Below, piece after piece: positions 847 through 57,647 of a stretch of 64,000 bases of DNA. A model generated the notes under the pieces. It was not told the origin of the DNA, searched no databases, and worked only from the letters and a program-made list of their open reading frames with translations. Positions within the stretch are counted from its first letter, which is position 1; each line of letters begins with the position of its first letter. The stretch covers positions 65,109 through 129,108 of the forward strand of contig JAGMAD010000003.1 of NCBI GenBank assembly GCA_023130975.1, read 5' to 3'. Origin of the DNA: Candidatus Parcubacteria bacterium (lineage in GTDB: Bacteria > Patescibacteriota > Minisyncoccia > Minisyncoccales > JAGMDC01). The position numbers were made by a program, and so were the translations under genes.

Positions 847-1641
847 ATGAAAGAAGGAAAACTTTATATTGGAACATCGGGTTGGGTGTATTCTCATTGG
901 CAAGGGATTTTTTATCCTGAAGATTTATCAGGGAAAGATAAATTGAAATATTTTTCTCAACATTTCAAAACCACGGAAATAAATTATTCTTTTTATCATT
1001 TGCCAAAACCAACCACTTATCAAAACTGGTATAAACAAACCCCCAAAGATTTTATATTCAGTGTCAAAGCCAGTCGTTTTATTACCCACACCTGCCTTGC
1101 CGGCAGGCAGGTCAAACGATTAAAAGAGGTAAAAGACGCTTGGAGGCAATTTTTAGAGAATGCTTTAAATCTTAAAGAAAAACTTGGTCCTATTTTATTC
1201 CAATTTCCGCCGAACTTTTCTGCTACCGACGAGAATATGAAAAGACTGAAAGATTTTTTGATATTAACAGAAGCCCGAGACCCGACCTCGGGATTACAAT
1301 CCCGAGGTCGGGGCTCGGTCAAATATGCTTTTGAATTCCGTCATCAAACTTGGTGTGGTCAAAGGATATACAAGTTATTAAAAAAATATAATTGCGCCTG
1401 GGTTATTAGTGATTCACCTTCTTTTCCTAAAGCCGAAGAAATAACCGCTGACTTTATTTATATTAGAATGCACGGTTCCAAGATTTTGTTTTCTTCAAAA
1501 TATACAAATAAAGAATTAAAAAATTTAGCCCAGAAAATCAAAAAATGGCAAAAAGAAAACAAAGATGTTTATATTTATTTCAACAATGATGCCCTTGGCT
1601 ATGCTGTTGAAAATGCCAAACAGCTTTTAAATTATGTTTAA
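847..1641 (+). CDS. DUF72 (YecE-like) family protein
   Basis: GTSGWVYSHW N-terminus plus FQFPP and EFRH..W blocks typical of DUF72. Contains two GC-rich palindromic in-frame inserts. Confidence 0.85.
   Translation: MKEGKLYIGTSGWVYSHWQGIFYPEDLSGKDKLKYFSQHFKTTEINYSFYHLPKPTTYQNWYKQTPKDFIFSVKASRFITHTCLAGRQVKRLKEVKDAWRQFLENALNLKEKLGPILFQFPPNFSATDENMKRLKDFLILTEARDPTSGLQSRGRGSVKYAFEFRHQTWCGQRIYKLLKKYNCAWVISDSPSFPKAEEITADFIYIRMHGSKILFSSKYTNKELKNLAQKIKKWQKENKDVYIYFNNDALGYAVENAKQLLNYV
1090..1112. repeat. GC-rich palindrome CCTGCCTTGCCGGCAGGCAGG in frame in the DUF72 gene
   Basis: Encodes ..CLAGRQV.. within the ITH..KRL block. The same core (CCTGCCTGCCGGCAGGCAGG) occurs at 49569-49588 upstream of sufC. 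Confidence 0.8.
1273..1320. repeat. 48-nt GC-rich hairpin in frame in the DUF72 gene
   Basis: Arms GCCCGAGACCCGACCTCGGGA and TCCCGAGGTCGGGGCTCGGTC (19 of 21 positions complementary) with loop TTACAA. Encodes ARDPTSGLQSRGRGS. Confidence 0.85.
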
Positions 1642-2322: not shown

Positions 2323-4089
2323 ATGAAAAATCAGGAATTAGCCAAAATATTTTATGAGATTGCTGATTTCTTAGAAATGGAAGAAATAGCATTTAAACCG
2401 TATGCTTATCAGAAAGCAGCTATTAGTTTAGACACTCTGGAAGAAGATGCGGCTGAGATTTATAAAAAAGGGGGATTAAAGGCATTGGAAAAGATTCCTG
2501 GAGTAGGCAAGAGTATTGCTGAAAAAATTGAGGAATATCTAAAGACCGGAAAAATTAAACATTATCAAGATTTGAAAAAGAAAATGCCAGTCCAGATAGA
2601 AGAGCTAACTGCTATTGAGGGAGTTGGACCAAAAACAGTAAAAGCACTTTACAAATCTCTGAAAATAAAAAATATAGAAGATTTAGAAAAAGCAGCTCGT
2701 GTTCACAAGATTAGGGGCCTGCCCGGTTTTCAAGAAAAAACAGAAAAAAATATCTTACAAGGAATTGCTTTTTTAAAAAGAAGCAAAGGTAGATTTTTAT
2801 TGGGAGAGATTTTACCCCAAGTTAAAGAAATTTTAGGACAATTAAAAACCCTAAAAGAAGTAGAGCAAATCAGTGTGGCTGGTTCAGTCAGGCGGATGAA
2901 AGAAACAATTGGTGATGTTGATATCTTAATTGTTTCCAAAAAACCAGACAAAGTAATGGATTTTTTTGTTTCTATGCCAGGAATTATAAAAGTTTGGGCA
3001 AAAGGTCCAACTCGTTCCTCAATAAGAGTAGAACAAGGTTTTGATATTGACCTGCGAGTAGTGGCTAAAAAAAGTTATGGTTCTGCCTTACAATATTTTA
3101 CTGGTTCCAAAGAACACAATATTGCCACTCGGCGTCTTGCTATAGAAAAGGGCTTAAAACTCAATGAATACGGGGTTTTTAAAAACAAAAAAATGATTGC
3201 TGGTTGGCGAGAGCCCGGAGTTTATCGAGCTATTGGTCTTGTTTGGATGCCGCCAGAACTAAGAGAAAATCAGGGAGAGATTGAGGCAGCTCTTCGCCAA
3301 GTTCAGGGTAAATTAAATGGTTTGCCCAAAATCATTGGTTATCAAGATATTAAAGGCGACCTTCATTGTCATTCTGATTGGGACGGCGGAAATAATTCTA
3401 TTGAAAAAATGGCAGAAGCAGCTCAACAAATGGACTATGAGTATTTGGGAATTACTGATCATACTAAGTTTTTAAGGATTGAGCAGGGATTAGATGAAAG
3501 ACAGTTGGCTCAACAGAGGAAAGAGATAGAAAAGATAAATGCCAAAATCCAAAATCCAAATTATTCCAAATCAAATCCAAAATCCAAATTTCAAATCCTT
3601 CAAGGATGCGAGGCTAATATTCTAAATGACGGTTCTATTGATATAAAAGACGAGGCATTAAAAAAACTGGATTATGCTATTGCTGGCATTCATTCCAGTT
3701 TTAAGATGCCTAAAGCAAAAATGACTGAGCGGATAATTAAGGCAATGAAAAATCCTTATATTAAAATCATTTCTCATCCAACAGGCAGAATTTTAAAAAA
3801 AAGAGATGAATATCAATGTGATTTTGAAAAGATTTTAAGAGCAGCAAAAACATTCGGAATAGTTTTAGAAATTAATTCCCAGCCCAGACGACTGGATTTA
3901 AATGACCAAAATATCAGAAGAGCAAAAGAAATGGGCATAAAAATGGTTATTAATACCGATGCTCATCATACAAGTCATTTAAGGTTTATGGATTTGGGTA
4001 TTGCCCAAGCCCGTCGGGGCTGGGCTGAAAAGAAAGATATAATAAATACACAGCCATTAGATAGATTATTAAAAAATTTTAAAAAATAA
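2323..4089 (+). CDS. polX: Family X DNA polymerase with C-terminal PHP domain
   Basis: HhH repeats (GVGKSIAEKI, GVGPKTV), pol-beta nucleotidyltransferase block GSVRR..ETIGDVDILI, and PHP motifs DLHCHSDWDGG and NTDAHH. Confidence 0.92.
   Translation: MKNQELAKIFYEIADFLEMEEIAFKPYAYQKAAISLDTLEEDAAEIYKKGGLKALEKIPGVGKSIAEKIEEYLKTGKIKHYQDLKKKMPVQIEELTAIEGVGPKTVKALYKSLKIKNIEDLEKAARVHKIRGLPGFQEKTEKNILQGIAFLKRSKGRFLLGEILPQVKEILGQLKTLKEVEQISVAGSVRRMKETIGDVDILIVSKKPDKVMDFFVSMPGIIKVWAKGPTRSSIRVEQGFDIDLRVVAKKSYGSALQYFTGSKEHNIATRRLAIEKGLKLNEYGVFKNKKMIAGWREPGVYRAIGLVWMPPELRENQGEIEAALRQVQGKLNGLPKIIGYQDIKGDLHCHSDWDGGNNSIEKMAEAAQQMDYEYLGITDHTKFLRIEQGLDERQLAQQRKEIEKINAKIQNPNYSKSNPKSKFQILQGCEANILNDGSIDIKDEALKKLDYAIAGIHSSFKMPKAKMTERIIKAMKNPYIKIISHPTGRILKKRDEYQCDFEKILRAAKTFGIVLEINSQPRRLDLNDQNIRRAKEMGIKMVINTDAHHTSHLRFMDLGIAQARRGWAEKKDIINTQPLDRLLKNFKK
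3541..3598 (+). repeat. In-frame AAATCC/CCAAA oligo-repeat in polX
   Basis: GCCAAAATCCAAAATCCAAATTATTCCAAATCAAATCCAAAATCCAAATTTCAAATCC, encoding AKIQNPNYSKSNPKSKFQI. Confidence 0.85.
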
Positions 4090-4126
4090 ATTTCAATTTT
4101 CGCTTTGTCATTCTGCATTTTGATTT

Positions 4127-4609
4127 TTGCATTTTGCATTTGACCGAGCGAAGCGAGGGAACGTGGCATTTGAAAAATCTGCCGGAGTAGTAATTTTTAG
4201 AAAAGAGAAAGGTAAAATTTATTACCTTCTTTTACATTATCCTTCTGGTTCAAGATCCCAAAAAGATTATTGGGACTTTTCCAAGGGCCATATTATAAAA
4301 GGAGAAAAACTCGAAGAGACAGCGAAAAGAGAAGCAAAAGAAGAAACAGGGATTAAAGATTTAAAATTTGTTGAAGGATTTAAAGAATGGATAAAGTATT
4401 TTTTTAAATTTAAAGGCGAGAATATCTTTAAGATAGTCACTTTCTACTTAGCTGAAACAAAAACAGAAGAAATAAAGATTTCTCCTGAACATATTGGTTT
4501 TCAGTGGCTACTATACGAGCAAGCAACAGAGCAGCTTAAATTTAAAAATGCCAAAGAAGTTCTCAAAAAAGCCAATAGTTTTATTAGAAAAAGTAGCATA
4601 ACAAATTAG
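4127..4609 (+). CDS. Nudix hydrolase
   Basis: Nudix box GHIIKGEKLEETAKREAKEETGI. The first 12 codons run through an intergenic repeat, so GTG at 4163 is an alternative start. Confidence 0.85.
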   Translation: MHFAFDRAKRGNVAFEKSAGVVIFRKEKGKIYYLLLHYPSGSRSQKDYWDFSKGHIIKGEKLEETAKREAKEETGIKDLKFVEGFKEWIKYFFKFKGENIFKIVTFYLAETKTEEIKISPEHIGFQWLLYEQATEQLKFKNAKEVLKKANSFIRKSSITN

Positions 4610-4731
4610 AGACTTGATATGTCAAAGCAAAGTTTGATATAATAAATCATAGATTTGATATATCAGACTAAAGTCTGTTATAGCAAGTCAGAGACTTGAT
4701 ATACCAAACCAAAGTTTGTTATAATAAAGAA
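4609..4731 (+). promoter_or_regulatory. Three tandem 41-bp units, each with TTGATA-N18-TATAAT/TATAGC and an internal small hairpin
   Basis: TTGATA occurs at 4614, 4655 and 4696, an exact 41-nt period. -10 boxes are TGaTATAAT (4635-4643), TATAGC (4679-4684) and TGtTATAAT (4717-4725). The spacer hairpin CA(A/G)AC..G(T/C)TG shows a compensatory A-T to G-C change in the middle unit. Confidence 0.6.
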
Positions 4732-4767
4732 AAGAAAATTGTAATTTAAAAAAAGAATAAAAAAGGG

Positions 4768-5651: not shown

Positions 5652-6164
5652 TTATTGTTTAGTAATTATCATTGTCAGTCCCCTTGGTTCTTTTTTTAAT
5701 TCCCTTTCTATTTTATAAGGAATAAGTTTTTTTAAAATTTCCAAAAATTTATTCATTTTTTCTCTGGCAAAACCTTGAAGAGCTTTTTCTCTTCCCCTTA
5801 ATCGCATTTCTATTCTTACTTTATTTCCTTGTTTCAAAAATTTTTCTGCCTGCTTAGCTCTTATTTCTAAATCATGAGGGGAAATGTTAAATCCTAATTT
5901 TATCCCTTTCATCTCTCCAATTTTTTGCTTTTGAGCTGATTTTCTTTCCTGCTTTTTTTCAGAATACTGGTATTTTCCATAATCCATTATTTTACAGACC
6001 GGTACTTCTAATTTCTCTGTAATCTGTATTAAATCTAAATTGCGCTCCCGAGCTATTTGGAGCGCTTTTTCCAATTTGAAAACCCCTAAATTTTTTCCAG
6101 TTTCATCAACTACTCTTACTTCCCTTGCTCGTATTCTATTATTGACTAATGCTCTTTTAAACAA
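5652..6164 (-). CDS. infC: Translation initiation factor IF-3 (TTG start)
   Basis: NNRIRAREVRVVDETG, NLDLIQI and PVCKIMDYGK blocks. The only in-frame start after an upstream TAA is TTG at 6164-6162. Confidence 0.92.
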   Translation of the reverse strand: MFKRALVNNRIRAREVRVVDETGKNLGVFKLEKALQIARERNLDLIQITEKLEVPVCKIMDYGKYQYSEKKQERKSAQKQKIGEMKGIKLGFNISPHDLEIRAKQAEKFLKQGNKVRIEMRLRGREKALQGFAREKMNKFLEILKKLIPYKIERELKKEPRGLTMIITKQ

Positions 6165-7531: not shown

Positions 7532-9181
7532 ATGGTTCGTGGAAAAATAAATAATTTAATAAAAAAAGCTATTAAAAACGCCCAAAAGGAAAAGGAATTG
7601 CCGAAGTTTAAGATTGATGAAGTTTCCATTGAACATCCGGAACAGGAAAAATATGGTGATTATTCTACCAATATTGCTATGCAGATTAGTAAAATTCTCA
7701 AGAAAGATCCAATGGAGATAGCAATAATATTAAGTGAAAAGTTAAAAATGAAAAGTGAAAAGTTTTTAGAAAAGATTGAAATAGTAGAGCCAGGATTTAT
7801 TAATTTTTTTATTTCCAAGGAATATTTACAAAAGCAAGTTTTAGATATTTTAAAAAAAGGAGAAAAATTTAGTGATTTAGACATTGGCAAAAAGAAAAAA
7901 ATTCAGATAGAATTTATTTCAGCAAATCCTACTGGTCCTTTAACTATTGGTAATGCCAGAGGGGGACCATTTGGCGATGTTTTAGGAAATATTTTTAAAA
8001 AAGCAGGATTCAAAATAGAGAAAGCGTATTATGTTAATGACTTTGGCAATCAGATTTTAGCTCTTGGCCATTCTGTTTTAAAAGATAAAGAAGCAGTTTA
8101 TAAAGGGAAATACATTGATGAACTTCATAAAAGAATACTTGCCCGCAGTAATACACGAAGTGTTTTGGGCGGGAAAGAAAAAGACCCATATAAAGCTGGG
8201 CAAAAAGCAGCAAAGATTATTATAGATGAAATAATTAAAAAGACAGTAAAGAAAATGGGAATTAAATACGATGAATGGTTTTGGGAAAGCCAGCTTCATA
8301 AAACTGGAAAAGTTGATGAAATAATAGAGTTTTTAAAAAAGAAAAAGCTAGTTTATAAAAAAGATGGAGCTTTATGGTTTAAATCATCAAAGTATGGTGA
8401 CAATAGAGACAGAGTATTAGTTAAACAAGATGGCTCAAAAACTTATTTAACTGGTGATATTGCTTATCATAGATATAAATTTGAAAAGAAAAAATTTAAT
8501 AAAGTGATAAATATTTGGGGAGCGGATCATTATGGAGATATTTCAGGATTGAAAGCTGGAACAGAAGCTCTGGGCCATAAAGATAAACTTGATATTATTC
8601 TTCATCAGTTTGTAACTATTTTAAGAAAAGGAGAAAAACAAAGGATGTCAAAAAGAAAAGGAGTTTATTTTACTATTAATGAGTTGCTTGATGAAATTAG
8701 TTCTGATGTAATGAGATTCTTTTTTCTCCAAAAATCTATAAATACACATTTGAATTTTGATATAGCATTAGCAAAAGAACAGTCAGAGAAGAATCCGGTT
8801 TATTATATTCAATACGCTTTCGCCAGAATACAGAGTATTCTGGCGAAAATCCCAAATCCCAAGTTCCAAATCCCAAATAAATCCCAAATCCCAAATCCCA
8901 AACTTGAATTATTAAAACATCCAAGTGAATTGAATTTAATTAAACAGCTTATTAAATTTCCGGAAGTTGTTGAAGATACTGCTAAAGATTATCAGGTTCA
9001 GCGATTGCCTCAATACGCTTTTGATTTAGCTGCTGCTTTTCACCAGTTCTATCGCGATTGCCGTGTTGTTTCAGAGGATGAGAATTTTAGCCAAGCTCGT
9101 TTAGCCCTGGCTTTAGCCACAAAAACTGTATTAAAAAGCGTTTTTGATTTAATGGGAATTTCTGCTCCCAAAAAAATGTAA
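7532..9181 (+). CDS. argS: Arginine--tRNA ligase
   Basis: Class I motifs (SANPTGPLTIGNARG as the HIGH region, MSKRKG) and NPVYYIQYAFARI near the C-terminus. Confidence 0.95.
   Translation: MVRGKINNLIKKAIKNAQKEKELPKFKIDEVSIEHPEQEKYGDYSTNIAMQISKILKKDPMEIAIILSEKLKMKSEKFLEKIEIVEPGFINFFISKEYLQKQVLDILKKGEKFSDLDIGKKKKIQIEFISANPTGPLTIGNARGGPFGDVLGNIFKKAGFKIEKAYYVNDFGNQILALGHSVLKDKEAVYKGKYIDELHKRILARSNTRSVLGGKEKDPYKAGQKAAKIIIDEIIKKTVKKMGIKYDEWFWESQLHKTGKVDEIIEFLKKKKLVYKKDGALWFKSSKYGDNRDRVLVKQDGSKTYLTGDIAYHRYKFEKKKFNKVINIWGADHYGDISGLKAGTEALGHKDKLDIILHQFVTILRKGEKQRMSKRKGVYFTINELLDEISSDVMRFFFLQKSINTHLNFDIALAKEQSEKNPVYYIQYAFARIQSILAKIPNPKFQIPNKSQIPNPKLELLKHPSELNLIKQLIKFPEVVEDTAKDYQVQRLPQYAFDLAAAFHQFYRDCRVVSEDENFSQARLALALATKTVLKSVFDLMGISAPKKM
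8843..8902 (+). repeat. In-frame AAATCCC oligo-repeat in argS
   Basis: GCGAAAATCCCAAATCCCAAGTTCCAAATCCCAAATAAATCCCAAATCCCAAATCCCAAAC, encoding AKIPNPKFQIPNKSQIPNPK. Confidence 0.85.
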
Positions 9182-9254: not shown

Positions 9255-12200
9255 ATGGACACAAATTTCCCTAACTTAGAAAAAAAGATTATAAAATTTT
9301 GGAAAGAGAACAGAATTTTTGAAAGATCAATTGAGCGACGCGAAAAAGCGCCTAATTTTGTTTTTTACGAAGGACCACCCTTTGCTAATGGCAAACCCGG
9401 TATTCATCATCTTTTGGCGCGGGCATTTAAGGATATGACTCTACGTTATAAAACAATGAGGGGTTATAAAGTAAAAAGGAAAGCTGGATGGGATACTCAT
9501 GGTTTACCGACTGAAATAGCCGCAGAAAAGGCATTAAAAATCAAAACGAAAAAAGACATAGAAAAAATTGGCATAGAGAAATTTATTAAGGAGTGTAGAA
9601 AAAATATCTTTACTTACAAAAAAGAATGGGAAAATTTCACTGAACGCATTGGTTTCTGGCTTGACATGGAAAATGCTTATATTACCTGTAGTAATAATTA
9701 TATTGAGTCGTTGTGGTGGATATTAAAACAGGTTTGGCAGAAAGGGCTTTTGTATCAGGATTATAAAGTGGTTCCTTATTGTCCGAGATGCGGAACATCG
9801 TTATCGTCCCACGAAGTAGCCCAGGGATACAAGAAAGTCAAAGAAAATTCAATTTATGTAAAGTTTCCTGTCAAAGGACAGAAGAATACTTATTTCTTGG
9901 TATGGACAACAACTCCTTGGACATTGCCAGGGAATGTGGCAATCGCAGTAAATTTGAAACCTACCTATGTCAAATTAAAGCTTAATAATGAATATCTGAT
10001 TTTAGCTAAACAGAGAATTAAGGATTGTGGAATAGAGGGAAAAATCACGAAAGAGTTTAAGAGAAAAGATTTGGTTGGATTGGAATATCAGCCCTTATAT
10101 AAAATTAAAATTAAGAAAGTCGGATTTCCTAAGGAAGTCCGACTTTCCGATGCTTATAAAATAATCCCTGCGGATTTTGTTTCCTTAGAAGAAGGAACAG
10201 GTTTAGTTCATATTGCACCTGCTTTTGGTGAAGATGATATGAATGTTAGTAAAGAAAATAATCTTCCTGTTTTAATAACAGTAGATGAACAAGGTAAAAT
10301 GAAAGCACCAAGTTATAAATGGAATAAGCTGTTTGTGAAAAATGCTGATCCGTTGATTATTGAAAATTTAAAAAAGAGAAAGCTGCTTTTCAAGGAAGAA
10401 TCGTATGAGCATGATTATCCTTTTTGCTGGAGATGTAAAACTCCTTTGATTTATTATGCTAAGAAGGCCTGGTTTATTGAGATGACCAAAATTAAAAAAG
10501 ATTTACTCAAAAATAACGAAAAGATAAACTGGGTTCCTAAACATTTAAAACAAGGCAGGTTCGGCGAATGGTTAAGGGAATTAAAAGATTGGGCTGTTTC
10601 CAGGGAAAGATATTGGGGCACACCCTTGCCTATCTGGAAATGTGAAAAATGCAGCCATCAGGAATTCATTGGTTCAAAAGAAGATATATTGAATCAAAAA
10701 TTTACTACTAATAAGTATTTTATTTTACGACATGGTGAATCAGAGTGTTCTAAAAAAGAAATAGGTGTTTCCAGCCCAGGAAAAGATTTATGTCCGTTGA
10801 CCAAAAAAGGAATGGCGCAAGTCCAGAAAGCCGCGCAGGAGTTAAAAAAAGAAAAAATAGATATTATTTTTTCTTCTGATTTATTGCGGACAAAACAAAC
10901 AGCGGAAATTGTTGGCAGAGCATTAGGTGTAAAAATAAAATACGACAAGCGGTTAAGGGAAATAAATTTTGGGATTTATGACAATAAATCGTTGAAACAA
11001 TGGAGGGGATTTTGGTTGGAAAGAAGCAATAGATTGAGAAAAAGACCTCCTTTAGGGGGAGAAAATTATACAAACGCAAAGAAAAGGATGTATAAATGTT
11101 TAAAAGATATTGATGAAAAATACAAAAGAAAAAAAATTTTAATAGTCAGCCATGGCGGCCCGATTTTAATGCTGTCGAGCGTAGTGAAAGGATTGTCCGA
11201 TGAAGAGATTACAAAACTCTTAAAAAGAGAACGAAAATTATTTCCAGTAGGGAAATGGCATAAAATAGATTTCAGGATTCTGCCTTACAATAAGCAGGGA
11301 GAATTGGATTTCCATAAGCCATATATTGATGAAGTAAAATTTAAATGTTCCAAGTGTGATAATTCAATGAAGCGAGTTTCAGAAGTGATTGATTGCTGGT
11401 TTGATTCTGGCGCAATGCCGTTTGCCCAATATCATTACCCTTTTGAAAACAAGAATCTAATTAACCCTTCGACAAGCTCAGGGCAAGTAAATCAATTTCC
11501 AGCAGATTTTATTTGCGAAGGAGTAGACCAAACTAGAGGTTGGTTTTACACTTTACTGGCTATTTCTACTTTGCTGGATTTGAGTCCGTCTTATAAAAAT
11601 GTCATTTCTTTGGGTCATGTTTTGGACGAAAAAGGGGAGAAAATGTCTAAATCAAAAGGAAATGTAGTTGATCCCTGGTATGTTATTGAAAAATATAGTT
11701 CAGATGCTGCTCGTTGGTATTTTTACACTATAAATCAGCCAGGTGATTCAAAACTTTTTACAGAGAAAGATGTAGATAATGCATTAAAGAAGTTTATTTT
11801 AACTTTTTGGAATATACATACTTTTTTTGAAACTTATGTTCCCAAAAAAGAATCTTTCAAATTTCAAGTTTTAAGTTCTAAGAATTTATTAGATAGATGG
11901 ATAATTTCTAAATTAAACAACTTGATTTTAGGAGTTTCTAAGAAATTGGATAATTATGATATTACTTCAGCTGCCAGAGATATAGAAGATTTTGTTATTA
12001 ATGATTTATCTCTATGGTATGTGAGGAGGTCCAGAAAAAGGTTTCAGAACCCTAAAACAAAAAAAGATTTTCAAGAAGCATCTGAGACCCTAAATTTTAT
12101 TTTATTAACTTTGAGTAAAGTAACAGCACCGTTTATTCCTTTTTTGAGTGAGGAAATATATCAAAAAGTCAAAAGTCAAAAGTTAAAAGTTAACAGTCAA

Positions 12201-12749
12201 AAGTCAACACATTTAGAGAAATGGCCAGAAGCAAATGAAAAATTAATAAATAAAAAGTTAGAAAAGAAAATGGAAATAGTTCGGGAGATTGTGGCACAAG
12301 GATTATCCCAAAGAGCAAAAGCAGGAATAAAAGTCCGCCAACCATTAAATAATTTTCAATTTTCAATTTTCAATTTTCAATTAGAAAAAGAATTATTAGA
12401 TTTGGTTAAAGAAGAGGTGAACGTAAAAGAAATTAGTTTTGGCAAGGAAACAAAGTTAGATACTAAAATTACGCCAAAGTTAAGGGAAGAAGGAATAGTC
12501 AGAGAAATTATTCGCAATACTCAAGAAATGCGTAAAAAAGCTGGTTATAAGCCAAAAGACAAAGTTTTAATCAGGTATACTGGAGATAAAGGGCTGAAGA
12601 AAATTTTAGAAAGAAATAAAAAGACAATTTTAAAAGAGATTGTAGTTAAAGACCTTTTAGAGGGTGATAGGCCGAAAAGAGTTTTTGATATTGAAAAAAC
12701 CTTTAAAATAGAAAACCAAGAACTCTGGTTGGGAATTAGAAAAATTTAA
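9255..12749 (+). CDS. ileS: Isoleucine--tRNA ligase (type 2) with embedded histidine-phosphatase domain
   Basis: PFANGKPGIHH (HIGH), KMSKSKGN, WTTTPWTLPGN, and zinc knuckles CPRCGT and CWRCKT. It is 1164 aa because of a 196-aa insert plus several short inserts. Confidence 0.95.
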   Translation: MDTNFPNLEKKIIKFWKENRIFERSIERREKAPNFVFYEGPPFANGKPGIHHLLARAFKDMTLRYKTMRGYKVKRKAGWDTHGLPTEIAAEKALKIKTKKDIEKIGIEKFIKECRKNIFTYKKEWENFTERIGFWLDMENAYITCSNNYIESLWWILKQVWQKGLLYQDYKVVPYCPRCGTSLSSHEVAQGYKKVKENSIYVKFPVKGQKNTYFLVWTTTPWTLPGNVAIAVNLKPTYVKLKLNNEYLILAKQRIKDCGIEGKITKEFKRKDLVGLEYQPLYKIKIKKVGFPKEVRLSDAYKIIPADFVSLEEGTGLVHIAPAFGEDDMNVSKENNLPVLITVDEQGKMKAPSYKWNKLFVKNADPLIIENLKKRKLLFKEESYEHDYPFCWRCKTPLIYYAKKAWFIEMTKIKKDLLKNNEKINWVPKHLKQGRFGEWLRELKDWAVSRERYWGTPLPIWKCEKCSHQEFIGSKEDILNQKFTTNKYFILRHGESECSKKEIGVSSPGKDLCPLTKKGMAQVQKAAQELKKEKIDIIFSSDLLRTKQTAEIVGRALGVKIKYDKRLREINFGIYDNKSLKQWRGFWLERSNRLRKRPPLGGENYTNAKKRMYKCLKDIDEKYKRKKILIVSHGGPILMLSSVVKGLSDEEITKLLKRERKLFPVGKWHKIDFRILPYNKQGELDFHKPYIDEVKFKCSKCDNSMKRVSEVIDCWFDSGAMPFAQYHYPFENKNLINPSTSSGQVNQFPADFICEGVDQTRGWFYTLLAISTLLDLSPSYKNVISLGHVLDEKGEKMSKSKGNVVDPWYVIEKYSSDAARWYFYTINQPGDSKLFTEKDVDNALKKFILTFWNIHTFFETYVPKKESFKFQVLSSKNLLDRWIISKLNNLILGVSKKLDNYDITSAARDIEDFVINDLSLWYVRRSRKRFQNPKTKKDFQEASETLNFILLTLSKVTAPFIPFLSEEIYQKVKSQKLKVNSQKSTHLEKWPEANEKLINKKLEKKMEIVREIVAQGLSQRAKAGIKVRQPLNNFQFSIFNFQLEKELLDLVKEEVNVKEISFGKETKLDTKITPKLREEGIVREIIRNTQEMRKKAGYKPKDKVLIRYTGDKGLKKILERNKKTILKEIVVKDLLEGDRPKRVFDIEKTFKIENQELWLGIRKI
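10115..10147. repeat. GAAGTCGGAYTTCC hairpin family, copy in ileS (in frame)
   Basis: GAAAGTCGGATTTCC-TAA-GGAAGTCCGACTTTC, encoding KVGFPKEVRLS. Confidence 0.85.
10713..11300 (+). other. Histidine phosphatase (PGAM-like, branch 1) domain inserted inside IleRS
   Basis: The insert contains LRHGES, SSDLLRTKQTA, REINFG and VSHGGPI in canonical order. It sits between IleRS blocks PIWKCEKC..FIGSKEDI and DFHKPYIDE..VIDCWFDSG. Confidence 0.85.
12164..12208 (+). repeat. In-frame AAAGTCA oligo-repeat in ileS
   Basis: AAAAGTCAAAAGTCAAAAGTTAAAAGTTAACAGTCAAAAGTCAAC, encoding KVKSQKLKVNSQKST. Confidence 0.8.
12351..12382 (+). repeat. In-frame (TTTTCAA)x4 repeat in ileS
   Basis: AATTTTCAATTTTCAATTTTCAATTTTCAATT, encoding NFQFSIFNFQL. 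The same heptamer occurs in the 39490-39535 intergenic region. Confidence 0.85.
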
Positions 12750-12754
12750 TTAAA

Positions 12755-13498
12755 ATGGCTATTCATTATAGGACAAAAGGTTTTTTTCTGAAAGAGGTTG
12801 ATAGGAGAGAATCAGATAAATTATTTGTAGTTTATACAAAGGATTTTGGGAAGTTGAAGATTTTAGGAAAAGCAATTAGAAAGATTAGATCAAAGCTAAG
12901 AAGTGGAGCAAGGGAGCTTTGTCTATCAGAAATTGAATTTATTCAAGGAAAAACTTATAAGACCTTGACTGATACTATTTTGATTGATAGCTTTCCAGAT
13001 ATAAGAAAAGATTTAGCAATTACAGAAACTGCTTTTCAAATTAATGATGCCTTGGATAGATTGGTCAAGGACGAAGAGAAAGACGATCAAATCTGGGAAT
13101 TATTAAATGAAACATTTGAAAAATTAAATAATTGTCAATTGTTAATAGTCAACAGTCAATTGTTATACCACTATTTTCTTTGGAATCTTTTTTCTTTTTT
13201 GGGCTACCAGCCAGAGCTTTATAAATGTTCATCTTGTGAAAAAGAATTAAAACCATTTCAATTATATTTCAGTCCAGAGCAAGGGGGAGTCGTTTGTAAT
13301 GTTTGCGCTCAGAGAATTAAAAAAGAGGATTCTTTGGAGAAATTAATAGAGATAAAGCCAGATGTTGTAAAAATTTTACGGCTTTTTCTTCAGAAAGATT
13401 GGTCTGTTTTATCAAAATTAAAAGTTGAAGAAAAAGATAAAGAGTTATTAGAAACAATTTCTGAAGATTATCTTTCTTTTGTTTTGGAAAATTCCTAG
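12755..13498 (+). CDS. recO: DNA repair protein RecO
   Basis: OB-fold-like N-terminus (GFFLKEVDRRESDKLFVVYTKDFGK) and a C4 zinc motif (CSSC..CNVC). Confidence 0.85.
   Translation: MAIHYRTKGFFLKEVDRRESDKLFVVYTKDFGKLKILGKAIRKIRSKLRSGARELCLSEIEFIQGKTYKTLTDTILIDSFPDIRKDLAITETAFQINDALDRLVKDEEKDDQIWELLNETFEKLNNCQLLIVNSQLLYHYFLWNLFSFLGYQPELYKCSSCEKELKPFQLYFSPEQGGVVCNVCAQRIKKEDSLEKLIEIKPDVVKILRLFLQKDWSVLSKLKVEEKDKELLETISEDYLSFVLENS
13131..13166 (+). repeat. In-frame GTCAAT/GTCAAC oligo-repeat in recO
   Basis: ATTGTCAATTGTTAATAGTCAACAGTCAATTGTTAT, encoding NCQLLIVNSQLL. Confidence 0.75.
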
Positions 13499-15315: not shown

Positions 15316-15394
15316 AAAAAACACAGGTCTGACCTGTGTAATATTTTTACTTACAAAAACCTAAAGGGCAGTTTAACCCTTTTTTATTTTTTTT
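15316..15394 (+). repeat. Left copy of the ~79-nt direct repeat (palindrome, then hairpin plus T-run)
   Basis: 44 nt (15316-15359) are identical to 28760-28803. This stretch includes the palindrome ACACAGGTC-T-GACCTGTGT. It is followed by TAAAGGG-N8-CCCTTTTTTATTTTTT with a different loop. Confidence 0.9.
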
Positions 15395-15419: not shown

Positions 15420-18400
15420 ATGGAACAAGAATATATTTCTCTTAAAAAAACAGAGGAGATTTTGACGAAAAAGAAAAAACCTTATTCAAGGGCTTATTTG
15501 AGTTTGCTTGCCCGACAGGGAAAGTTAAAAGCAGTGAAGATTGGAGTAGAGTGGATGACAACTAAAAATTGGCTTAACCAATTTTTGGGAAATCGAAAGA
15601 AGTCAAAGCGTTTAAAGTGGCAGTTTAAACATTCAGAGGTGATTTTGCCGTTGTATTTTGGTTATGGGTTGAAAATTGCTTTGGTAAAGCTTTCAAATGA
15701 TACTTTAAATCTAACATCCAAGGTTTTCAAAAAGCATTGGCAGGAGGCAGTGGCGTTGGTTTTACTGGTGGTAATGGTGAGTTCTGGATTTTGGTTCTAT
15801 CCTACAAGAACGGTTCTCGGTGCAACTTATTATTTTGTCCAGACAGACTGGTCTGGCGGTTTAGATGGAGAAACTTATCCAGTACATCCGACTAACAAAA
15901 CTAATTGGACAAAATACAACGCCAAAGATTCTGAAACTATTGCCAGTACCGAACTTGCTTTAACCACCACTTCTGACTCCTGGACCCAGACCAGCAGCGC
16001 TGATTTTAACGCCGGGACACCGAATAGTGTTTCCATAAATGAAGGGGATGTAATCTTGGCAGCAGAGTCTTTTTCTTGGTCTGCCAAATCTGCCTGGGAT
16101 ACCCCTGATATCGGAGAATATTCTGTCCCAGCCTTTGCTGATTTAGATAATGATGGTGATTATGATTTGTTGATCGGGGAGAAGAATGGAATAAATTATG
16201 GTTATGAAAACACTGGTTCAATTACCAGCCCAACCTGGTCTGCCAAATCTGCCTGGGATGTTTCTGATGATGAAGTAAATGTCGCCCCAGCCTTTGCTGA
16301 TTTAGATAATGATAGCGACTATGATTTGTTAATTGGGGAGTATTATGGAGTAAGTTATGGTTATGAAAACACTGGTTCAATCACCAGCCCAACCTGGTCT
16401 GCCAAATCTGCCTGGGATACTCCTGATGTCGGAACTTGGAGTAGGCCAGTCTTTGCTGATTTAGATAATGATAGCGACTATGATTTGTTAATTGGGGAGT
16501 ATTATGGAGTAAGTTTTGGGTATGAAAACACTGGTTCAATTACCAGCCCAACCTGGTCTGCCAAATCTGCCTGGGATACCCCTGATATCGGAGAATATTC
16601 TGTCCCATCCTTTGCTGATTTAGATAATGATGGTGATTATGATTTGTTGATCGGGGAGTATTATGGAGTAAGTTTTGGTTATGAAAACACTGGTTCAATT
16701 ACCAGCCCAACCTGGTCTGCTAAATCTGCCTGGGATACTCCTGATATTGGGAGCAGTGCCGCCCCAGCCTTTGCTGATTTAGATAATGATGGCGACTATG
16801 ATTTGTTGATTGGGGAGGCTGGTGGAGTAAGTTTTGGGTATGAAAATGCGATTACTTATTATTCTCCCGGCGATCTTATTTCCTCCTCCCAGGACCTTGG
16901 CCAGCAATCTAATTTCACTACAATTCAATGGACTGAAAATCTACCTTCAAACACTGATTTGAAATTCCAAATAGCTACTAATAATGATAATGCAACATGG
17001 AATTTTATTGGCCCTGGTGGAACTGACGCTACTTATTACACTACTGCTTCAGGAGAGAACATCCATTCTTCTCATAATGAAGACCAATATGTGAAATACA
17101 AAGCATATTTATCTACTTCTGATACTTCAGTCACGCCGACTTTATCGGATATTACTATTAACTACGAATATTATCCTAGTTCAGCTAGTTTAACTTCTTC
17201 TCCTTACGATACCTCTGATGCAGCTAATGCTTTGAGTGATATTCAATGGACAGAGAGTTTAGCCAGTAATACAAACATCAAGTTTCAAATGAGAACTGCT
17301 CCAGATAGTTCTGGTTCTCCTGATTGGGCAAATGGTTCTGGCTGGTGCGGACCATCAACCTGCGCTGCCACTAAAGCTGATGATGATTATGCCTCTGATT
17401 ATTACGAGACAACTTCTGCTGGAGAGACCGCTAATTCTGTTCATTCCACTGGCGAGAACGATCAATGGTTTCAATACAAGGTCTGGCTGGTAACCACTGA
17501 TAACGTGTCTTTTCCAACTCTATCAGATGTTACTCTAACCTATGTGGTTAACGCGCCGCCGGAATTTAATCCTGATTATCCGAGCCCCAGCGCAGGAGGT
17601 GTTTCAGCTGTTCAAAATTCAGACGGAACAGTAACCATTAATTATTCTATTAGAGACCCGGATACTACTTCAGGTTCATCAACTCCTGGCTATATTACTC
17701 CTTCGTTTGAATACTGGAATGATTCTTCATGGGTAAGTTGCACCACAATGGCTTCAGGAGATACTGATAACAAAGCAGTTGAAGAAGTAAATTATATTGC
17801 TTATTCAGCTACCTGGTATGCTAAGACAGATTTTAATAGCCAATATATGAATAATACAGCTAAGATTAAGATAACCATTAATGACAATGAAGCAGCTAAT
17901 AACACTGCCAATCAAGAATCAGCCACCTTTACTTTAGATACAAAAGACCCTGTGCCAGGCACGCCTTCAATTTCAGTAGATCCCTCTCAAAGTCCTGCTG
18001 CCTTAACCATTTCTTGCTCAGATGATTTGCAATCTACTTTACAGATGAAAATAGGTTTGGCTTCAGATTTAAGTGATGCCACTTATGAAGATTATTCCAC
18101 TTCTTCGACCATATCTTTAGTAACCGACCCAGATACTGTTTATATCCAATTCAAAGACGAAAAAGGAAATACCTCTTCTATCGTCTCTGCGACCACCCCA
18201 GAAACGCCAAGCAGTATGATAATTAGAGATGTAACAAATTTAGATACAAGCGATTTTCAATTATTTATTGCTTGGAAAGTCATCGAGGTTCCAAGTCCTG
18301 GTTTTCAACAATATATCATTTTTCGTTCTACTGATGGGACTAATTATGCTCAATTAACCACCATTGATAATCGGCTATTGAATTATTATATGGATACGAG

Positions 18401-28391: not shown

Positions 28392-28760
28392 ATGAATAAA
28401 TTAAAGACTATTTTCACAATCATTATTCTTGTTTTGTTAGTAGGCAATATATTTTTTGGTGTTAAATATTTTGCCGTTCAAAAAGAACTTCAGCAAACTC
28501 AAATCGCCTTGGAAACTCAAAAAACTAATGAAAAAGTTTTGGACTTTACAAAACTGTTTATTGAGAAAGTCCTAAAAGCAAAAACAGAAGTTGATTTTGA
28601 GACACGGCTGAAATTAGAAAATGCTGTAAGGAATTTAGACGATGAAGAAATTTTGGCTCAATGGCAAAAATTTACTGAAAGTGAAACTGAAAATGAAGCC
28701 CAAGAGGAAGTTAAAAATTTGTTAGAGATGTTAGTAAATAAAATTCACCCTGTTAAATAA
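28392..28760 (+). CDS. Membrane-anchored coiled-coil protein (122 aa)
   Basis: N-terminal TM helix then a charged helical region. Lies 2 nt after the upstream stop. Confidence 0.65.
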   Translation: MNKLKTIFTIIILVLLVGNIFFGVKYFAVQKELQQTQIALETQKTNEKVLDFTKLFIEKVLKAKTEVDFETRLKLENAVRNLDDEEILAQWQKFTESETENEAQEEVKNLLEMLVNKIHPVK

Positions 28761-28838
28761 AAAAACACAGGTCTGACCTGTGTAATATTTTTACTTACAA
28801 AAATTTAAAGGGTTATTTAGCCCTTTTTTATTTTTTTA
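28760..28838 (+). repeat. Right copy of the ~79-nt direct repeat
   Basis: See the left copy. This copy starts at the stop codon of the 28392..28760 gene and ends just before the glyQS -10 box. Confidence 0.9.
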
Positions 28839-28858: not shown

Positions 28859-30253
28859 ATGGAGAATTTAATGGAAAAGATAGTGAGTCTTTGCAAAAGG
28901 CGGGGCTTTATTTTCCCTAGTTCTGAAATCTATGGCGGTTTTTCAAGTTGTTATGATTTCGGACCATTAGGGGTTGAGATGAAGAGAAACATTAAAAGGA
29001 TTTGGTGGGACGAAATGACAAAACTTCATGATAATATTACGGGATTAGACGCTGGTGTTTTAATGTCGTCAAAAGTTTGGCAAGCATCTGGCCATTTAGC
29101 TGCTGGGTTTGCTGATGAATTAGTTGAATGTAAGGAATGCCATAAGCGGTTTAAATTAGACGAAATCCGCCAGCCGGCGGAAAAATGTCCAGAGTGTGAT
29201 GGTGTATTAACCAAGCCAAGAAAATTTAATCTAATGATGAAAACATTTGTGGGGCCGGTTGAAAATGAAAGTTCTCTGACTTATTTAAGGCCGGAAACTT
29301 GCCAGGGGATTTATGTTAATTTTCTTAATGCAGCCAATTCTATGCGGATGAAAATTCCTTTTGGCATTGCCCAGATTGGTAAGGCATTTAGAAACGAAAT
29401 TACGCCTGGCAATTATATTTTTCGGATTCGGGAGTTTGAACAAATGGAAATGCAGTTTTTTGTTAATTCTTTAATTAACAAAAAACCGCGAAAGAAACGC
29501 GAAACTAAACGCGAAAGAAACGCGAAAAATTGGACTCCAGATGATTGGTTTGATTATTGGAAAGAAGAACGCTTGAAATGGTATTTGGACTTAGGGATAG
29601 AAAAAGACAATTTGAGAGCCGTAGAGATTCCTGAGAAAGAAAGGGCTCATTATGCTAAGAGACAAATAGATCTTGAATATCATTTTCCATTCGGATGGAA
29701 AGAAATTGAAGGAGTTCACAATCGAGGCGATTTTGATTTATCTAATCATTCAAAACATAGTGGTCAAGATTTATTATATTTTGACGAAGAGTCAAACAAA
29801 AAATACATTCCTCATATTATTGAAACATCGGTAGGGGTAGAGCGTATTTTATTAGCTTTTCTTTGTGAGTCATATACTGAAATAAAAGGAGGGAGGACAA
29901 AGACGACAAAGGCAGTAAAAGAAGTTGAATCAGTTTTGAAATTAGATAAAAGATTGACTCCAGTTAAAGTAGCAGTTTTGCCATTGGTTCGCAATAAGCC
30001 AAGGATAGTTAAAAAGGCAAAAGAAGTTTATCAATTATTAAAACCTCATTTTACTTGCCAATACGATGAACTTGGGTCAATTGGCCGCCGCTATCGCCGT
30101 CAGGACGAGACAGGGACATTTCTATGTTTAACCATAGATTTTGAAAGTTTAGAAAATGATGATTTAACTATCCGCAACCGCGACACTATGAAGCAAGAAA
30201 GAGTAAAAATAGAGGAACTTGTTGAAATAATAAAAAAGAAAATAAATGTATAA
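28859..30253 (+). CDS. glyQS: Glycine--tRNA ligase (alpha2 class II type)
   Basis: RRGFIFPSSEIYGG, LRPETCQG, FRNEITP and IETSVGVERI blocks. ATG 28871 (preceded by GGAG) is an alternative start. Confidence 0.93.
   Translation: MENLMEKIVSLCKRRGFIFPSSEIYGGFSSCYDFGPLGVEMKRNIKRIWWDEMTKLHDNITGLDAGVLMSSKVWQASGHLAAGFADELVECKECHKRFKLDEIRQPAEKCPECDGVLTKPRKFNLMMKTFVGPVENESSLTYLRPETCQGIYVNFLNAANSMRMKIPFGIAQIGKAFRNEITPGNYIFRIREFEQMEMQFFVNSLINKKPRKKRETKRERNAKNWTPDDWFDYWKEERLKWYLDLGIEKDNLRAVEIPEKERAHYAKRQIDLEYHFPFGWKEIEGVHNRGDFDLSNHSKHSGQDLLYFDEESNKKYIPHIIETSVGVERILLAFLCESYTEIKGGRTKTTKAVKEVESVLKLDKRLTPVKVAVLPLVRNKPRIVKKAKEVYQLLKPHFTCQYDELGSIGRRYRRQDETGTFLCLTIDFESLENDDLTIRNRDTMKQERVKIEELVEIIKKKINV
29166..29181. 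repeat. TCCGCCAGCYGGCGGA palindrome, copy in glyQS
   Basis: AAATCCGCCAGCCGGCGGAAAAA, read as I R Q P A E K. Confidence 0.75.
29487..29530 (+). repeat. In-frame (ACGCGAAA-like)x4 repeat in glyQS
   Basis: CGCGAAAGAAACGCGAAACTAAACGCGAAAGAAACGCGAAAAAT, encoding RKKRETKRERNAKN. Resembles the intergenic GCGAAAA repeats at 57529-57549. Confidence 0.8.
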
Positions 30254-33588: not shown

Positions 33589-33611
33589 AAAAGGAGGTGA
33601 AACCTCCTTTT
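33589..33611 (+). promoter_or_regulatory. Perfect 10-bp hairpin occluding the GGAGG upstream of the LAGLIDADG ORF
   Basis: AAAAGGAGGT-GAA-ACCTCCTTTT ends 6 nt before ATG 33618. Confidence 0.6.
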
Positions 33612-33617
33612 AAAATT

Positions 33618-34622
33618 ATGTCTTGTGTTCCAGTTTCTATTTCAAAAAATGAATTAAAGGATTTATATGAAAAGAAAAAATTAACTACATATGAAATAGC
33701 TGATATTTATTATTGCTGTCAGGGAACTATCTGGAAAAGACTAGAACAATATGGAATTAAACGTCTTCCTAATGGCAGAAGATCCTTTGTTATTTCTAAA
33801 TCTAAACTGAAAAACCTCTATATCAAACAACGACTTTCTAGTAGGAAGATAGCAAAAATATATGGATGTGCTTATTCGACTATAGATTACAAAATAAGAG
33901 AGTATGGGTTTCCAGTAAAAACTCTTGCAGTAGCACATATTACTACACTGCGCAAAAATTTCGATGAAAATAAAACAAATAAAGCTTATCTGATTGGTTT
34001 TGCAATGGGGGATTTGAGAGTAAGGAAGAAATATCCAAATAGTGAAACCATAAACGTTGATTGTGCATCTACTAAAGAAGAACAAATTAATCTTATTTCA
34101 GGATTATTTAAACCCTATGGGAGAGTTTGGGTTAGTAAACCAAATAAGAAAGGAGCCACTCAAATCGAATGTTCTTTAAATGATTCCTTCAATTTTTTAT
34201 TAAAAAAGCGAATTTTAATTGACCTTTGGATTATAAAAAATAAAAAATATTTTTCGGCATTTCTTGCAGGATTTACTGATGCTGAAGGATGTATTTCTAT
34301 TACTAATAAAGAGTTAGCTTTTTATTCTTTGGGGAATTACAATAGTCAGCTTTTATCACAGATTCGAAACCAACTTCTAGAAATTGGGATAGAAAGTCCC
34401 AAACTAACTGAGGGAAAAACCAAAGGATATGTTGGAAGGGAAGGATATGCGAACAATCAAAACTATTGGTCGCTGCGTCTTAACAGAAAAATTCATTTAT
34501 TAAAACTTTTTGATTTAATTGATCCTTATTTAAAACATCCTACAAGAATTAAGGGTATTAAAAGAGCAAAGCAAAATATTAAATTGCGAAATATAAAATT
34601 TGGTAATCTTAAAATGAATTAA
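33618..34622 (+). mobile_element. Free-standing LAGLIDADG homing endonuclease with two N-terminal HTH modules
   Basis: Two LAGLIDADG-type motifs (LIGFAMGDLRV, FLAGFTDAEGCISI). Duplicated N-terminal module L(K)xLYxKxxL(S/T)xxxIAxIY.C...TI...(L/I).(Q/E)YG. No intein junction residues. The ORF also opens at GTG 33597. Confidence 0.8.
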
Positions 34623-39484: not shown

Positions 39485-39621
39485 GATAAAAAACTATCGT
39501 TAAAATTTTCAATTTTCATTAAATTTTCAATGAATCAATTTTCAATTAAGAATTAGAAATTTAATAGAAATTAGAAATTAAAAATTAGAAATTTGAGCGA
39601 AGCCCGTTAGGGCAAGCGAAC
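39485..39621. repeat. Intergenic composite upstream of glmS: TTTTCAA repeats, then TTAGAAA repeats, then a GAGCGAAGC..GGCAAGCGAAC module
   Basis: TTTTCAA occurs about four times, then AATTAGAAAT about four times, then GAGCGAAGCCCGTTAGGGCAAGCGAAC ending 4 nt before the ATG. A similar order (TTTTGCA repeats, then GACCGAGCGAAGCGAGGGAACG) occurs at 4100-4165 upstream of the Nudix gene. Confidence 0.75.
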
Positions 39622-41440: not shown

Positions 41441-41535
41441 TCCAATCATATCAACATTCAAACATACCAACATTTTAACAAAATTTAAATTCAAAATGTT
41501 AAAATGTTTAGATGTTAAAATGTTAGAATAAATTT
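41441..41535. repeat. Intergenic imperfect inverted repeat built from CAACAT / ATGTTA oligo-repeats
   Basis: The left arm ..TCAACATTCAAACATACCAACATTTTAAC and right arm GTTAAAATGTTTAGATGTTAAAATGTTAG are approximately complementary. Confidence 0.7.
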
Positions 41536-43785: not shown

Positions 43786-43793
43786 AATTTTAG

Positions 43794-43826
43794 GGAAGTC
43801 GGATTTCCAAAGGAAATCTGACTTCC
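43794..43826. repeat. GAAGTCGGAYTTCC hairpin family, intergenic copy (iorA-iorB spacer)
   Basis: GGAAGTCGGATTTCC-AAA-GGAAATCTGACTTCC, with one G-T pair. Confidence 0.85.
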
Positions 43827-43833
43827 AAGCATT

Positions 43834-57501: not shown

Positions 57502-57516
57502 AGATTTTAATTAAGT

Positions 57517-57635: not shown

Positions 57636-57647
57636 ATTATACCACTC

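Follow-up and report, generated by a model that had tools for sequence, protein, structure and literature searches.

Tandem arrays of a heptanucleotide unit in housekeeping genes and spacers of a Parcubacteria genome and its relatives

The 64-kb stretch of contig JAGMAD010000003.1 analysed here (the window) is part of a metagenome-assembled Candidatus Parcubacteria genome. It is densely coding, with 33% GC, its proteins exactly match MCK4453904-48, and its parent contig is 284,771 bp long. Our subject is the set of about 14 clear tandem arrays of a 7-nt unit in this window, 10 of which lie in frame within polX, argS (2), ileS (2), recO, metG, iorA (2) and pth (Table 1); Tandem Repeats Finder (TRF) returned 25 period-7 rows on the 64 kb. 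The hosts IleS, RecO, GlyRS, IorA and Pth were confirmed by Pfam as named in the initial annotation of the stretch, and Pfam additionally assigned PolX, ArgS, MetG and TatD, while LeuS was confirmed separately and GlmS through its domains. That annotation had listed in-frame repeats in ileS (at 12164 and 12351), recO, iorA (two sites) and pth, and these are indeed period-7 arrays in intact open reading frames (ORFs) at about the coordinates proposed; the arrays of polX, argS and metG were missing from its list. Both clear ileS arrays lie within an intact 1164-aa ORF. The accompanying view that nearly every long housekeeping gene carries such a repeat was too broad: a clear array is present in 5 of the ~26 ORFs of at least 300 aa, and leuS, hisS, glmS, topA, ftsA and ftsZ have none.

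Table 1. Repeat arrays and 33-nt hairpin elements in the window
Feature	Position	Strand	Basis
polX array (AAAATCC) x7.3, 77% identity, with indels	3537-3588	+	TRF
argS array (AAGTGAA) x4.6	7732-7763	+	TRF
argS array (AAATCCC) x8.4, one 3-4-nt phase break, peptide KIPNPKFQIPNKSQIPNPK	8847-8902	+	TRF
ileS weak, decayed array (TTTCAAR)	11854-11883	+	sequence; arrays of relatives at the site
ileS array (AAAAGTC) x6.3, 89% identity, peptide QKVKSQKLKVNSQKS	12164-12207	+	TRF
ileS array (AATTTTC = TTTTCAA) x4.6, 100% perfect, peptide NFQFSIFNFQ	12351-12382	+	TRF
recO array (AATTGTC) x4.9, peptide NNCQLLIVNSQLL	13130-13163	+	TRF
glyQS in-frame repeat, period 11-12 (CGCGAAAGAAA), not a heptamer array	29487-29527	+	TRF
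metG array (AAATTCC) x8.4, peptide NSKFQIPNSKQIPNSKFQ	35716-35771	+	TRF
iorA array (TATCTAA/CAATATC) x4.6	42659-42690	+	TRF
iorA array (AAACATC) x5.0, peptide KHPTLNIQHPTS	43183-43217	+	TRF
pth array (AAGAGAC on the coding strand) x3.9, 100% perfect, peptide KQETRDKRQE	57242-57268	-	TRF
Spacer between polX and Nudix gene: (TTTGCAT) x5.3, overlapping the predicted TTG start of the Nudix gene	4104-4141	.	TRF
leuS-glmS spacer: (AATTTTC)n at 39504-39547, then (AATTAGA)n	39504-39593	.	TRF
glmS-ppa spacer: period-8 (CAACATNN)n and inverted complement (AAAATGTT)n, hairpin	41442-41529	.	TRF, fold
pth-lepB divergent spacer: (AAAGCGA) x3.4 and inverted (TTTTACG/TTTTAAG)n, jointly a long hairpin	57526-57627	.	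TRF, fold
(AAAAGTT) x2.6 directly after HIT-family gene	59907-59924	.	TRF
33-nt perfect hairpin nano-element AGAAGTCGGAYTTCC-N3-4-GGAAGTCCGACTTYY, in frame in ileS	10112-10148	+	sequence, fold
33-nt hairpin element, copy in tatD	36553-36592		
33-nt hairpin element, copy in iorA	42817-42855		
33-nt hairpin element, copy in iorA-iorB spacer	43791-43829		

Exact lag-7 self-matches of at least 12 nt occur 8 times in the window. None was found in 30 dinucleotide shuffles, and none at any of the other lags between 2 and 24. A mismatch-tolerant scan found 9 regions of period 7 and 5 of the harmonic period 14, whereas all remaining periods gave 0-1 each. For comparison, we used 160 IleS-centred loci (numbered with L) from Parcubacteria/Paceibacteria genomes and metagenomes, with IleS identities of 40-69%; the nearest IleS relative found in a metagenome scan is 69% identical. 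Closer sisters, L165 and L166 (GCA_023131895.1) and L168/L169, were reached through Pth and RecO homologues (~80% identity), and the genes of all relatives were modelled as stop-to-stop ORFs of 80 aa or more. In the first 1.51 Mb of the related loci, TRF detected 79 period-7 arrays and none in a shuffle. In the non-redundant census set of 132 loci (2.20 Mb), period 7 contributes 141 coding, 32 intergenic and 4 edge arrays at a score of at least 40; the next commonest period is 12 (79 coding and 11 intergenic), and periods 3 and 6 are essentially absent. At a score of at least 50, 72 coding arrays have period 7 and 24 have period 21. These enrichment statistics count arrays and not origins, arrays at orthologous sites being non-independent events. 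The dominance of period 7 is a clade-wide property, and the process that makes the repeats is specific to this period rather than a generic excess of short repeats; its products resemble microsatellites in being head-to-tail arrays of 3-8 copies beyond chance. About 80% of the clade's period-7 arrays are coding. Since period 7 dominates spacers as well as genes, the bias is mutational and not translational or a by-product of coding. The genome-wide, coding-blind seeding of repeats proposed in the initial annotation, with selection keeping the coding copies open, therefore holds and extends to the clade, but it concerns period 7 and not short repeats in general.

Inside a gene, the 7-aa period of the encoded peptide arises from three identical heptamers, one read in each frame, which marks the repeat as a DNA-level event rather than a selected peptide repeat. 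The opposite view, that 7-residue peptide repeats are selected as flexible or disordered linkers, as proposed for Borg elements, is in our judgement very improbable. The arrays are located in variable, probably exposed segments, and their A- and C-enriched sense strand resembles that of Borg in-ORF repeats (PMC9879509). Selection on heptad or other peptide repeats, however, would need a DNA period of 21 nt with synonymous variation, whereas the period here is 7, dominant also in spacers, with unit identity up to 100% and all three frames read; moreover, the peptides at one site are wholly different between species, and the NFQFSIF array of ileS is hydrophobic. A synthetic (KFQIPNS)x6 peptide compared with 5.8 billion proteins matched only 17 tiny hypothetical ORFs, a search that is uninformative because short in-protein arrays cannot reach significance. 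Telomere-like repeats were rejected, as no rotation or strand of the units matches TTTAGGG, and so were programmed frameshifting, introns and inteins, as the ORFs are continuous and homologous across the arrays.

Coding arrays bear signs of selection in their density, stop-free frames, A-rich sense strand and quantised length. Their density is 68.5 per Mb of coding sequence, 3.3-fold below the 228 per Mb of spacers. Every 21 nt of a heptamer repeat present the unit in each of the three frames, so the unit must be stop-free; in the first iorA array (42659-42690), the would-be TAA falls in frame in one copy only, and that copy reads CAA. The sense strand has more A than T in 115 coding arrays and less in 13, and the bias remains (36 to 3) when only units lacking stops in both orientations are counted. 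Minus-strand genes such as pth show it too, so that it is tied to the gene rather than to the replication strand. Of the 141 coding spans, 82 lie in a peak at 30-34 nt, and a second peak is found 21 nt further, at 49-56 nt (peaks at ~32 and ~53), whereas intergenic spans are flat across 24-94 nt, with 10 of 32 within 30-34 nt (Fisher p = 0.01). Perfect arrays make up 26 of the 141. The arrays do not behave as phase-variation contingency loci: their hosts are essential housekeeping genes, the frames are intact, and no out-of-frame alleles were seen. Two apparent truncated or length-variant alleles (IorA P0007 and a split IleS in L168) were rejected as scaffold N-gaps, the gap in L168 lying at a GC-rich palindrome. 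That assembly or sequencing artefacts account for the pattern itself has a practically negligible probability, even with these two gaps in mind, given that identical arrays occur in independent assemblies and samples, the ORFs stay open, and more than 100 independent genome and metagenome assemblies share it.

Copy number changes between relatives in whole units, by three-unit (+21-nt) steps at recO, ileS and argS; no single-unit changes were observed. At recO, the short allele of L169 reads GATTGTCAATTGTTATAC and holds 1.9 copies of ATTGTCA (proto-repeat ATTGTCAATTGTTA); the window is longer by exactly 21 nt and has 5 copies, so that the compared stretch is 28 aa in the window and 21 aa in L169, and the proteins are 247 and 240 aa (P0148), respectively. 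The recO site of L078 has (CCTGTTT)n at a length equal to that of the window. At the 12164 site of ileS, the window is again exactly 21 nt, or 7 aa, longer than L169, L078 and L004 (23 versus 16 aa between SEEIY and S(V/T)HL), and L078 holds one copy of the unit (TCAAAAG) there. At the 8847 site of argS, the window exceeds by 21 nt L169, which carries (AATTATC) x4.5, and related arrays are found in L004, L009, L042, L127 and L031. We infer that the modal coding span of ~32 nt reflects the addition of 21 nt to an 11-nt proto-repeat.

In different species, arrays are found again at the same sites with different units. In a 66-protein IleS alignment, all 20 arrays fall in about six gap-rich regions whose column occupancy is 0.19-0.53, compared with 0.94 overall. 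The RQPL linker of ileS (the 12351 site) has the same length in relatives, several of which carry other units there: AATTTTC in the window, AAATGAA in L078, AAGAATT in L005/L008/L064, AAAAATC in L036/L040, AAAGCTC in L038 and AAATTCC in L098. Strong lag-7 periodicity is present there in 8 of 86 species, compared with 14 of 2408 control segments. Other recurrent sites with differing units are ARIxSILxK in argS, GNLVARVxTLA in metG, EIxKIN in polX and the pth site, and ileS has further ones at YVKF, APAFGEDD and TY..LDKWIIS. At the 7732 site of argS, L169 has a segment of equal 32-nt length with a different period-7 unit, and L078 a period-8 array; at the 11854 site of ileS, L166/L169 have a degenerate (AAAGCTC)n, and the same array in L078 is split by a palindromic element. 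Arrays also occupy the polX site in L016 and the metG site in L016, L098 and L099. Arrays are a property of a minority of genes, where they keep to a few variable protein sites shared between species, a narrower placement than was first supposed. With respect to tempo, arrays are unchanged between genomes that are 94-98% identical, and at 80-90% identity the orthologous site often has an array of the same length, or of a length differing by 21 nt, with a different unit. Contraction and re-expansion would thus appear faster than point-mutational decay and slower than strain divergence, which fits concerted evolution.

With respect to protein structure, the argS array at 8847 adds 6 aa relative to the Campylobacter jejuni ArgRS (PDB 3fnr), in the loop after the ARI helix. 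The peptide of the metG array aligns without gaps to an ordinary segment of PDB 2csx, and that of pth likewise to 7y52; these two arrays overwrote a segment of equal length. The initial description of the repeats as inserts is therefore apt for some arrays, which add length, but not for others, which replace an equal length. In the Pth model (predicted local distance difference test score, pLDDT, 90.7), the array forms the end of helix 70-81 and the loop 82-86, the block of lowest confidence; the RecO model (pLDDT 47) was too poor for placing the array. We also note that the two longest arrays (argS AAATCCC, at 8843, and metG AAATTCC, at 35711) begin straight after Leu-Ala-Lys codons (CTG/CTT GCG AAA) at a helix end, which is probably coincidence or seeding from the A-run of the Lys codon.

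The units are AT-rich and diverse, with many different ones among the 141 coding arrays, and some are nevertheless strongly preferred. Relative to 7-mer frequencies in coding DNA, AAATTCC (8 arrays) is in 61-fold excess, AAATCCC in 51-fold, AAATCTC in 37-fold and AAAATCC in 31-fold, and pairs of coding arrays have an identical unit in 1.45% of cases, where 0.10% is expected (14-fold). The TC-then-A pattern may derive in part from stop avoidance, since C can safely link a run of T to a run of A; this accounts for the strength of the preference only in part. The initial annotation had seen gene repeats as mirroring the spacers of their own genome. One such case is sound, as the ileS heptamer at 12351-12382 is reused in the leuS-glmS spacer (39504-39547), both being AATTTTC; two other resemblances were not borne out, since the glyQS repeat has period 11-12 and shares only a GCGAAA core with 57526-57549, and the repeat at 41442-41474, likened to that of iorA, has period 8 and shares only a CAACAT core. 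When our TRF census of related loci was split into coding and non-coding sequence, units were shared between the two beyond chance: 1 of 64 pairs within a genome (1.6%), presumably the AATTTTC pair of the window, and 1.3% between genomes, against a composition null of 0.12%, which is ~10-fold lower. As this sharing is equal within and between genomes, it points to a limited clade-wide repertoire and not to genes copying the spacers of their own genome.

Such a repertoire could also be expected if pre-formed blocks of ~21-32 nt from a limited AAAWYCN family were inserted as small mobile or templated elements, through a sequence-biased enzyme or gene conversion between arrays, comparable to the in-frame palindromic nano-elements described below. 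The recurrence of units in unrelated genes and species far above composition and 7-mer nulls agrees with this, as do the stereotyped array length of ~32 nt, the uptake of the 33-nt hairpin element and of GC-rich palindromes by the same loops, and the identity of units, 4.1% within and 1.4% between genomes (permutation p = 0.016). We nonetheless regard it as unlikely: conserved flanks, defined ends and target duplications were not found, many different units occur among the coding arrays, the unit at one site differs between sister genomes, and the short recO allele holds a local seed from which the array is derivable by adding 21 nt. Flanks shared by arrays of families D13 and D15 were considered as element ends and rejected, being native conserved gene sequence.

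In spacers, arrays can be paired with an inverted partner, which is the case for 8 of 32 intergenic heptamer arrays (25%) and 1 of 141 coding ones across the clade. In the window, the glmS-ppa spacer (41441-41535, between co-directional genes) and the pth-lepB spacer (57510-57640, between divergent genes) are predicted to form long imperfect hairpins, with fold z-scores of -5.3 and -5.0, respectively. The pth-lepB arrays are absent in sister L165, which carries AAACAT/ATGTTT arrays instead; turnover of spacer arrays is faster than that of coding arrays. It could be argued from the inverted partners and the folding of the window spacers (z ~ -5) that periodicity is selected at the nucleic-acid level, for instance as binding sites of an RNA- or single-stranded-DNA-binding protein or as hairpin arms, and that copies in genes are kept for this reason. 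Persistence of arrays at fixed sites while their units change, the lack of synonymous change in the pth array, and the regulatory role proposed for TAACTGA repeats in Beggiatoaceae (PMC4679880) would be in line with it. Yet the arrays have no common motif, the coding ones lack inverted partners, any one site is without an array in most relatives (at the ileS linker, in 78 of 86), the hosts are unrelated housekeeping genes, and spacer arrays are replaced wholesale between sister genomes; we consider such selection decidedly unlikely as the cause of the arrays.

Based on these findings, we propose that the arrays are microsatellites of heptanucleotide units, generated by a process of the slippage type that favours 7 nt, that genes filter them by frame, stops, peptide chemistry and structural tolerance, and that recurrent contraction and expansion keep them periodic; we hold this to be the probable explanation. 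A slippage-type process at the DNA level, with an intrinsic 7-nt step, would be active throughout Parcubacteria genomes, and a local proto-repeat of ~11-12 nt (one unit plus a 4-5-nt partial copy) would serve as the seed that expands. Polymerase slippage would be the generating step. Spacers would accept any number of units, while genes would keep only three-unit changes (21 nt, or 7 codons), and survival in a gene would need a stop-free unit, a tolerable A-rich or hydrophilic peptide, and a variable surface segment. Once established, an array would stay prone to slippage, and repeated contraction and re-expansion would homogenise it; such recurrent homogenisation would lead to arrays at the same protein site in many species with different units, that is, to concerted evolution.

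Several observations weigh against this proposal. The density of arrays at hot spots is ~10-fold above that of spacers (an estimate from ~9% of species at one 45-nt ileS site versus 228 per Mb), for which tolerance alone is insufficient, and the preference for certain units is not predicted by plain slippage without added selection or sequence preference. Replacement of a segment by an array of equal length needs compensating deletions. The pth array (29 nt) is 100% identical in the window and L165 despite ~20% divergence of its flanks, as would be expected only of an array that is constrained or that evolves as a single 7-nt unit. Copy-number variants were seen neither within populations nor between strains, and 90%-identity protein clusters of eight host proteins contained no length variants, although such thin data would hardly be expected to show one; the 7-nt step also lacks a link to any polymerase or repair gene. 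Of the indels listed between near-identical locus pairs, none was a heptamer unit. A stronger claim can be made, namely that Parcubacteria possess an active, sequence-biased mechanism which generates and homogenises heptamers (a property of a replicative or repair polymerase, or a templated process), continuously overwrites fixed permissive loops from an AAAWYCN repertoire and builds spacer hairpins. It would amount to a clade-specific mutational engine, possibly with a function at the nucleic-acid level; we think it possible, though with rather low probability.

AT-rich or reduced genomes elsewhere tolerate DNA-level repeats that are translated in surface loops of conserved proteins. Housekeeping proteins of Plasmodium falciparum contain low-complexity inserts of codon-level (Asn/Lys) runs, and the Rickettsia palindromic elements (RPEs) are palindromes of 100-150 nt in dispersed positions; a 7-nt period is absent from both. 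Long simple sequence repeats (SSRs) of prokaryotes, for their part, are reportedly found mainly in the large genomes of free-living bacteria. In the account of Mrazek, Guo and Shah (2007) relayed in PMC4679880 and PMC4692102, heptanucleotides are the commonest class of long SSRs in many prokaryotes, slippage with a ~7-nt polymerase contact is proposed, and repeats within genes mostly have units that are a multiple of three. This contact is the only existing proposal for the 7-nt preference. Our arrays share with prokaryotic SSRs of 5-11 nt the over-representation of tandem 7-nt units among periods and the proposal of slippage, but they occur in small-genome Parcubacteria, lie for ~80% in genes, including those of essential aminoacyl-tRNA synthetases, and change in three-unit steps.

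Specific heptamer families show further likenesses and differences. The GGGNATC/GGGGAYT repeats of Xanthomonas and Nostoc (PMC4692102) and the cyanobacterial short tandemly repeated repetitive (STRR) sequences are likewise heptameric, vary in copy number between relatives and sometimes form inverted pairs; the G-rich heptamers, however, are under-represented in genes and mainly intergenic (PMC4692102), whereas ours are AT-rich, diverse and ~80% coding, and thus fall outside this class. The TAACTGA repeats of Beggiatoaceae, Cyanobacteria and Bacteroidetes (PMC4679880) are heptamers found in spacers and, rarely, in ORFs, where stops limit their orientation and tolerant protein parts accept them, but they have a single unit, lie mostly just upstream of start codons and, when inside ORFs, occupy protein termini or hypothetical proteins, in contrast to the internal loops of conserved enzymes here. 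The tandem repeats of Borg elements (PMC9879509) resemble ours in occupying spacers and ORFs, in A enrichment (A/C in ORFs), in partial flanking repeats, in fast evolution and in conserved hot spots; their in-ORF units are all divisible by three and almost never shared (PMC9879509), whereas ours are 7 nt long and drawn from a small recurring repertoire, which sets them apart from the Borg type. Our literature searches did not find a description of heptamer repeats in the candidate phyla radiation (CPR) or Patescibacteria. New here are the small-genome CPR host clade, the predominance in essential housekeeping genes, the 21-nt quantisation, and the fixed sites with unit turnover.

The arrays show that essential genes can harbour a repeat with a unit length not divisible by three, given three-unit changes and a unit open in all three frames, and they offer a natural example of a mutation bias (the 7-nt step) that shapes protein loops together with selection on frame, stops, peptide chemistry and structural tolerance. 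They account for many odd lineage-specific CPR peptides (FQIPNSK, KSQIPNP, KIKNQKS) that complicate alignment, phylogeny and annotation. Site-fixed arrays with unit turnover are a tractable system for the concerted evolution of microsatellites and bear on the old question of why 7 nt is the favoured unit of long SSRs in prokaryotes. Together with the co-located palindromic nano-elements, they mark permissive insertion sites of conserved enzymes.

These nano-elements are of several kinds, and the variable loops are landing sites open to small DNA repeats in general. The 33-nt hairpin element (arms AGAAGTCGGACTTCC-N3-4-GGAAGTCCGACTTCT, dG -23 to -27 kcal/mol) has four copies, three of them in frame, translated as KKVGFPKEVRLSD in IleS, KEVGLPKGSPTSKK in TatD and RSRTSAGSPTSRK in IorA; its half-site has 8 matches in the window compared with 0.55 expected, and in IleS it makes an insert of 13 aa relative to L078 and L004. 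It fits the description of a dispersed palindromic nano-element, similar to RPEs or to repetitive extragenic palindromic (REP) sequences and miniature inverted-repeat transposable elements (MITEs), whereas the heptamer arrays, without shared flanks or palindromy, do not. A 14-nt palindrome, CCGCCAGC(T/C)GGCGG, with AAAT flanks, is found in coding sequence of GlyRS (29163-29186), IorA (42243-42266, 'NPPAGGK') and a YbeY-like ORF (60265-60288), and is one more small dispersed palindrome that reading frames tolerate. Also present are a CCGCCAGCTGGCGG palindrome and a 'RDPTSGLQTRGR' element rich in GC. Different proteins of related genomes contain the peptide 'RDPTSGLQ(S/T)RGR', the translation of a GC-rich palindromic element (GACCCGACCTCGGGTCTGCAGACCCGAGGTCGG-like); the element lies in the DUF72 ORF of the window (847-1641, peptide EARDPTSGLQSRGRGS) and in IleS of L168 (9520-9620) and L169 (5350-5400), and it broke the L168 assembly at an N-gap. 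In L078, the closest GTDB relative, unrelated segments at 8881-9018 and 6032-6118 interrupt heptamer arrays in ileS and argS; the ileS interruption is GC-rich and palindrome-like, and these are nested insertions in the same loops.

Larger repeats of the window spacers include a 41-nt unit repeated 3.2 times downstream of the Nudix gene (4598-4735), each unit with a small inverted repeat (CAAAGTTTG / GACTTGAT-like). Two copies of a 78-nt intergenic repeat (15316-15393 and 28760-28837, 92% identical) contain the hairpin CACAGGTCTGACCTGTG and, ahead of a T run, another stem, and are probably a shared terminator module downstream of two genes.

Some of the genes themselves deserve mention. IleS (9255-12749) contains a complete histidine-phosphatase domain (PF00300, E = 1e-37) at aa 489-654, as an insertion into the catalytic core; this fusion seems to be conserved in the group, as nearly all fetched related IleS loci match the full 1164-aa query. 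A free-standing ORF resembling LAGLIDADG homing endonucleases (PF14528, E = 1.5e-8) is located at 33597-34622, directly upstream of metG, where an intron or intein context is not evident. Finally, a tandem repeat of 159 nt at 16077-16846 (x4.8, 86% identity) encodes FG-GAP-like repeats in a putative surface protein of 1808 aa; this is a common type of in-frame domain repeat and has no relation to the heptamers.

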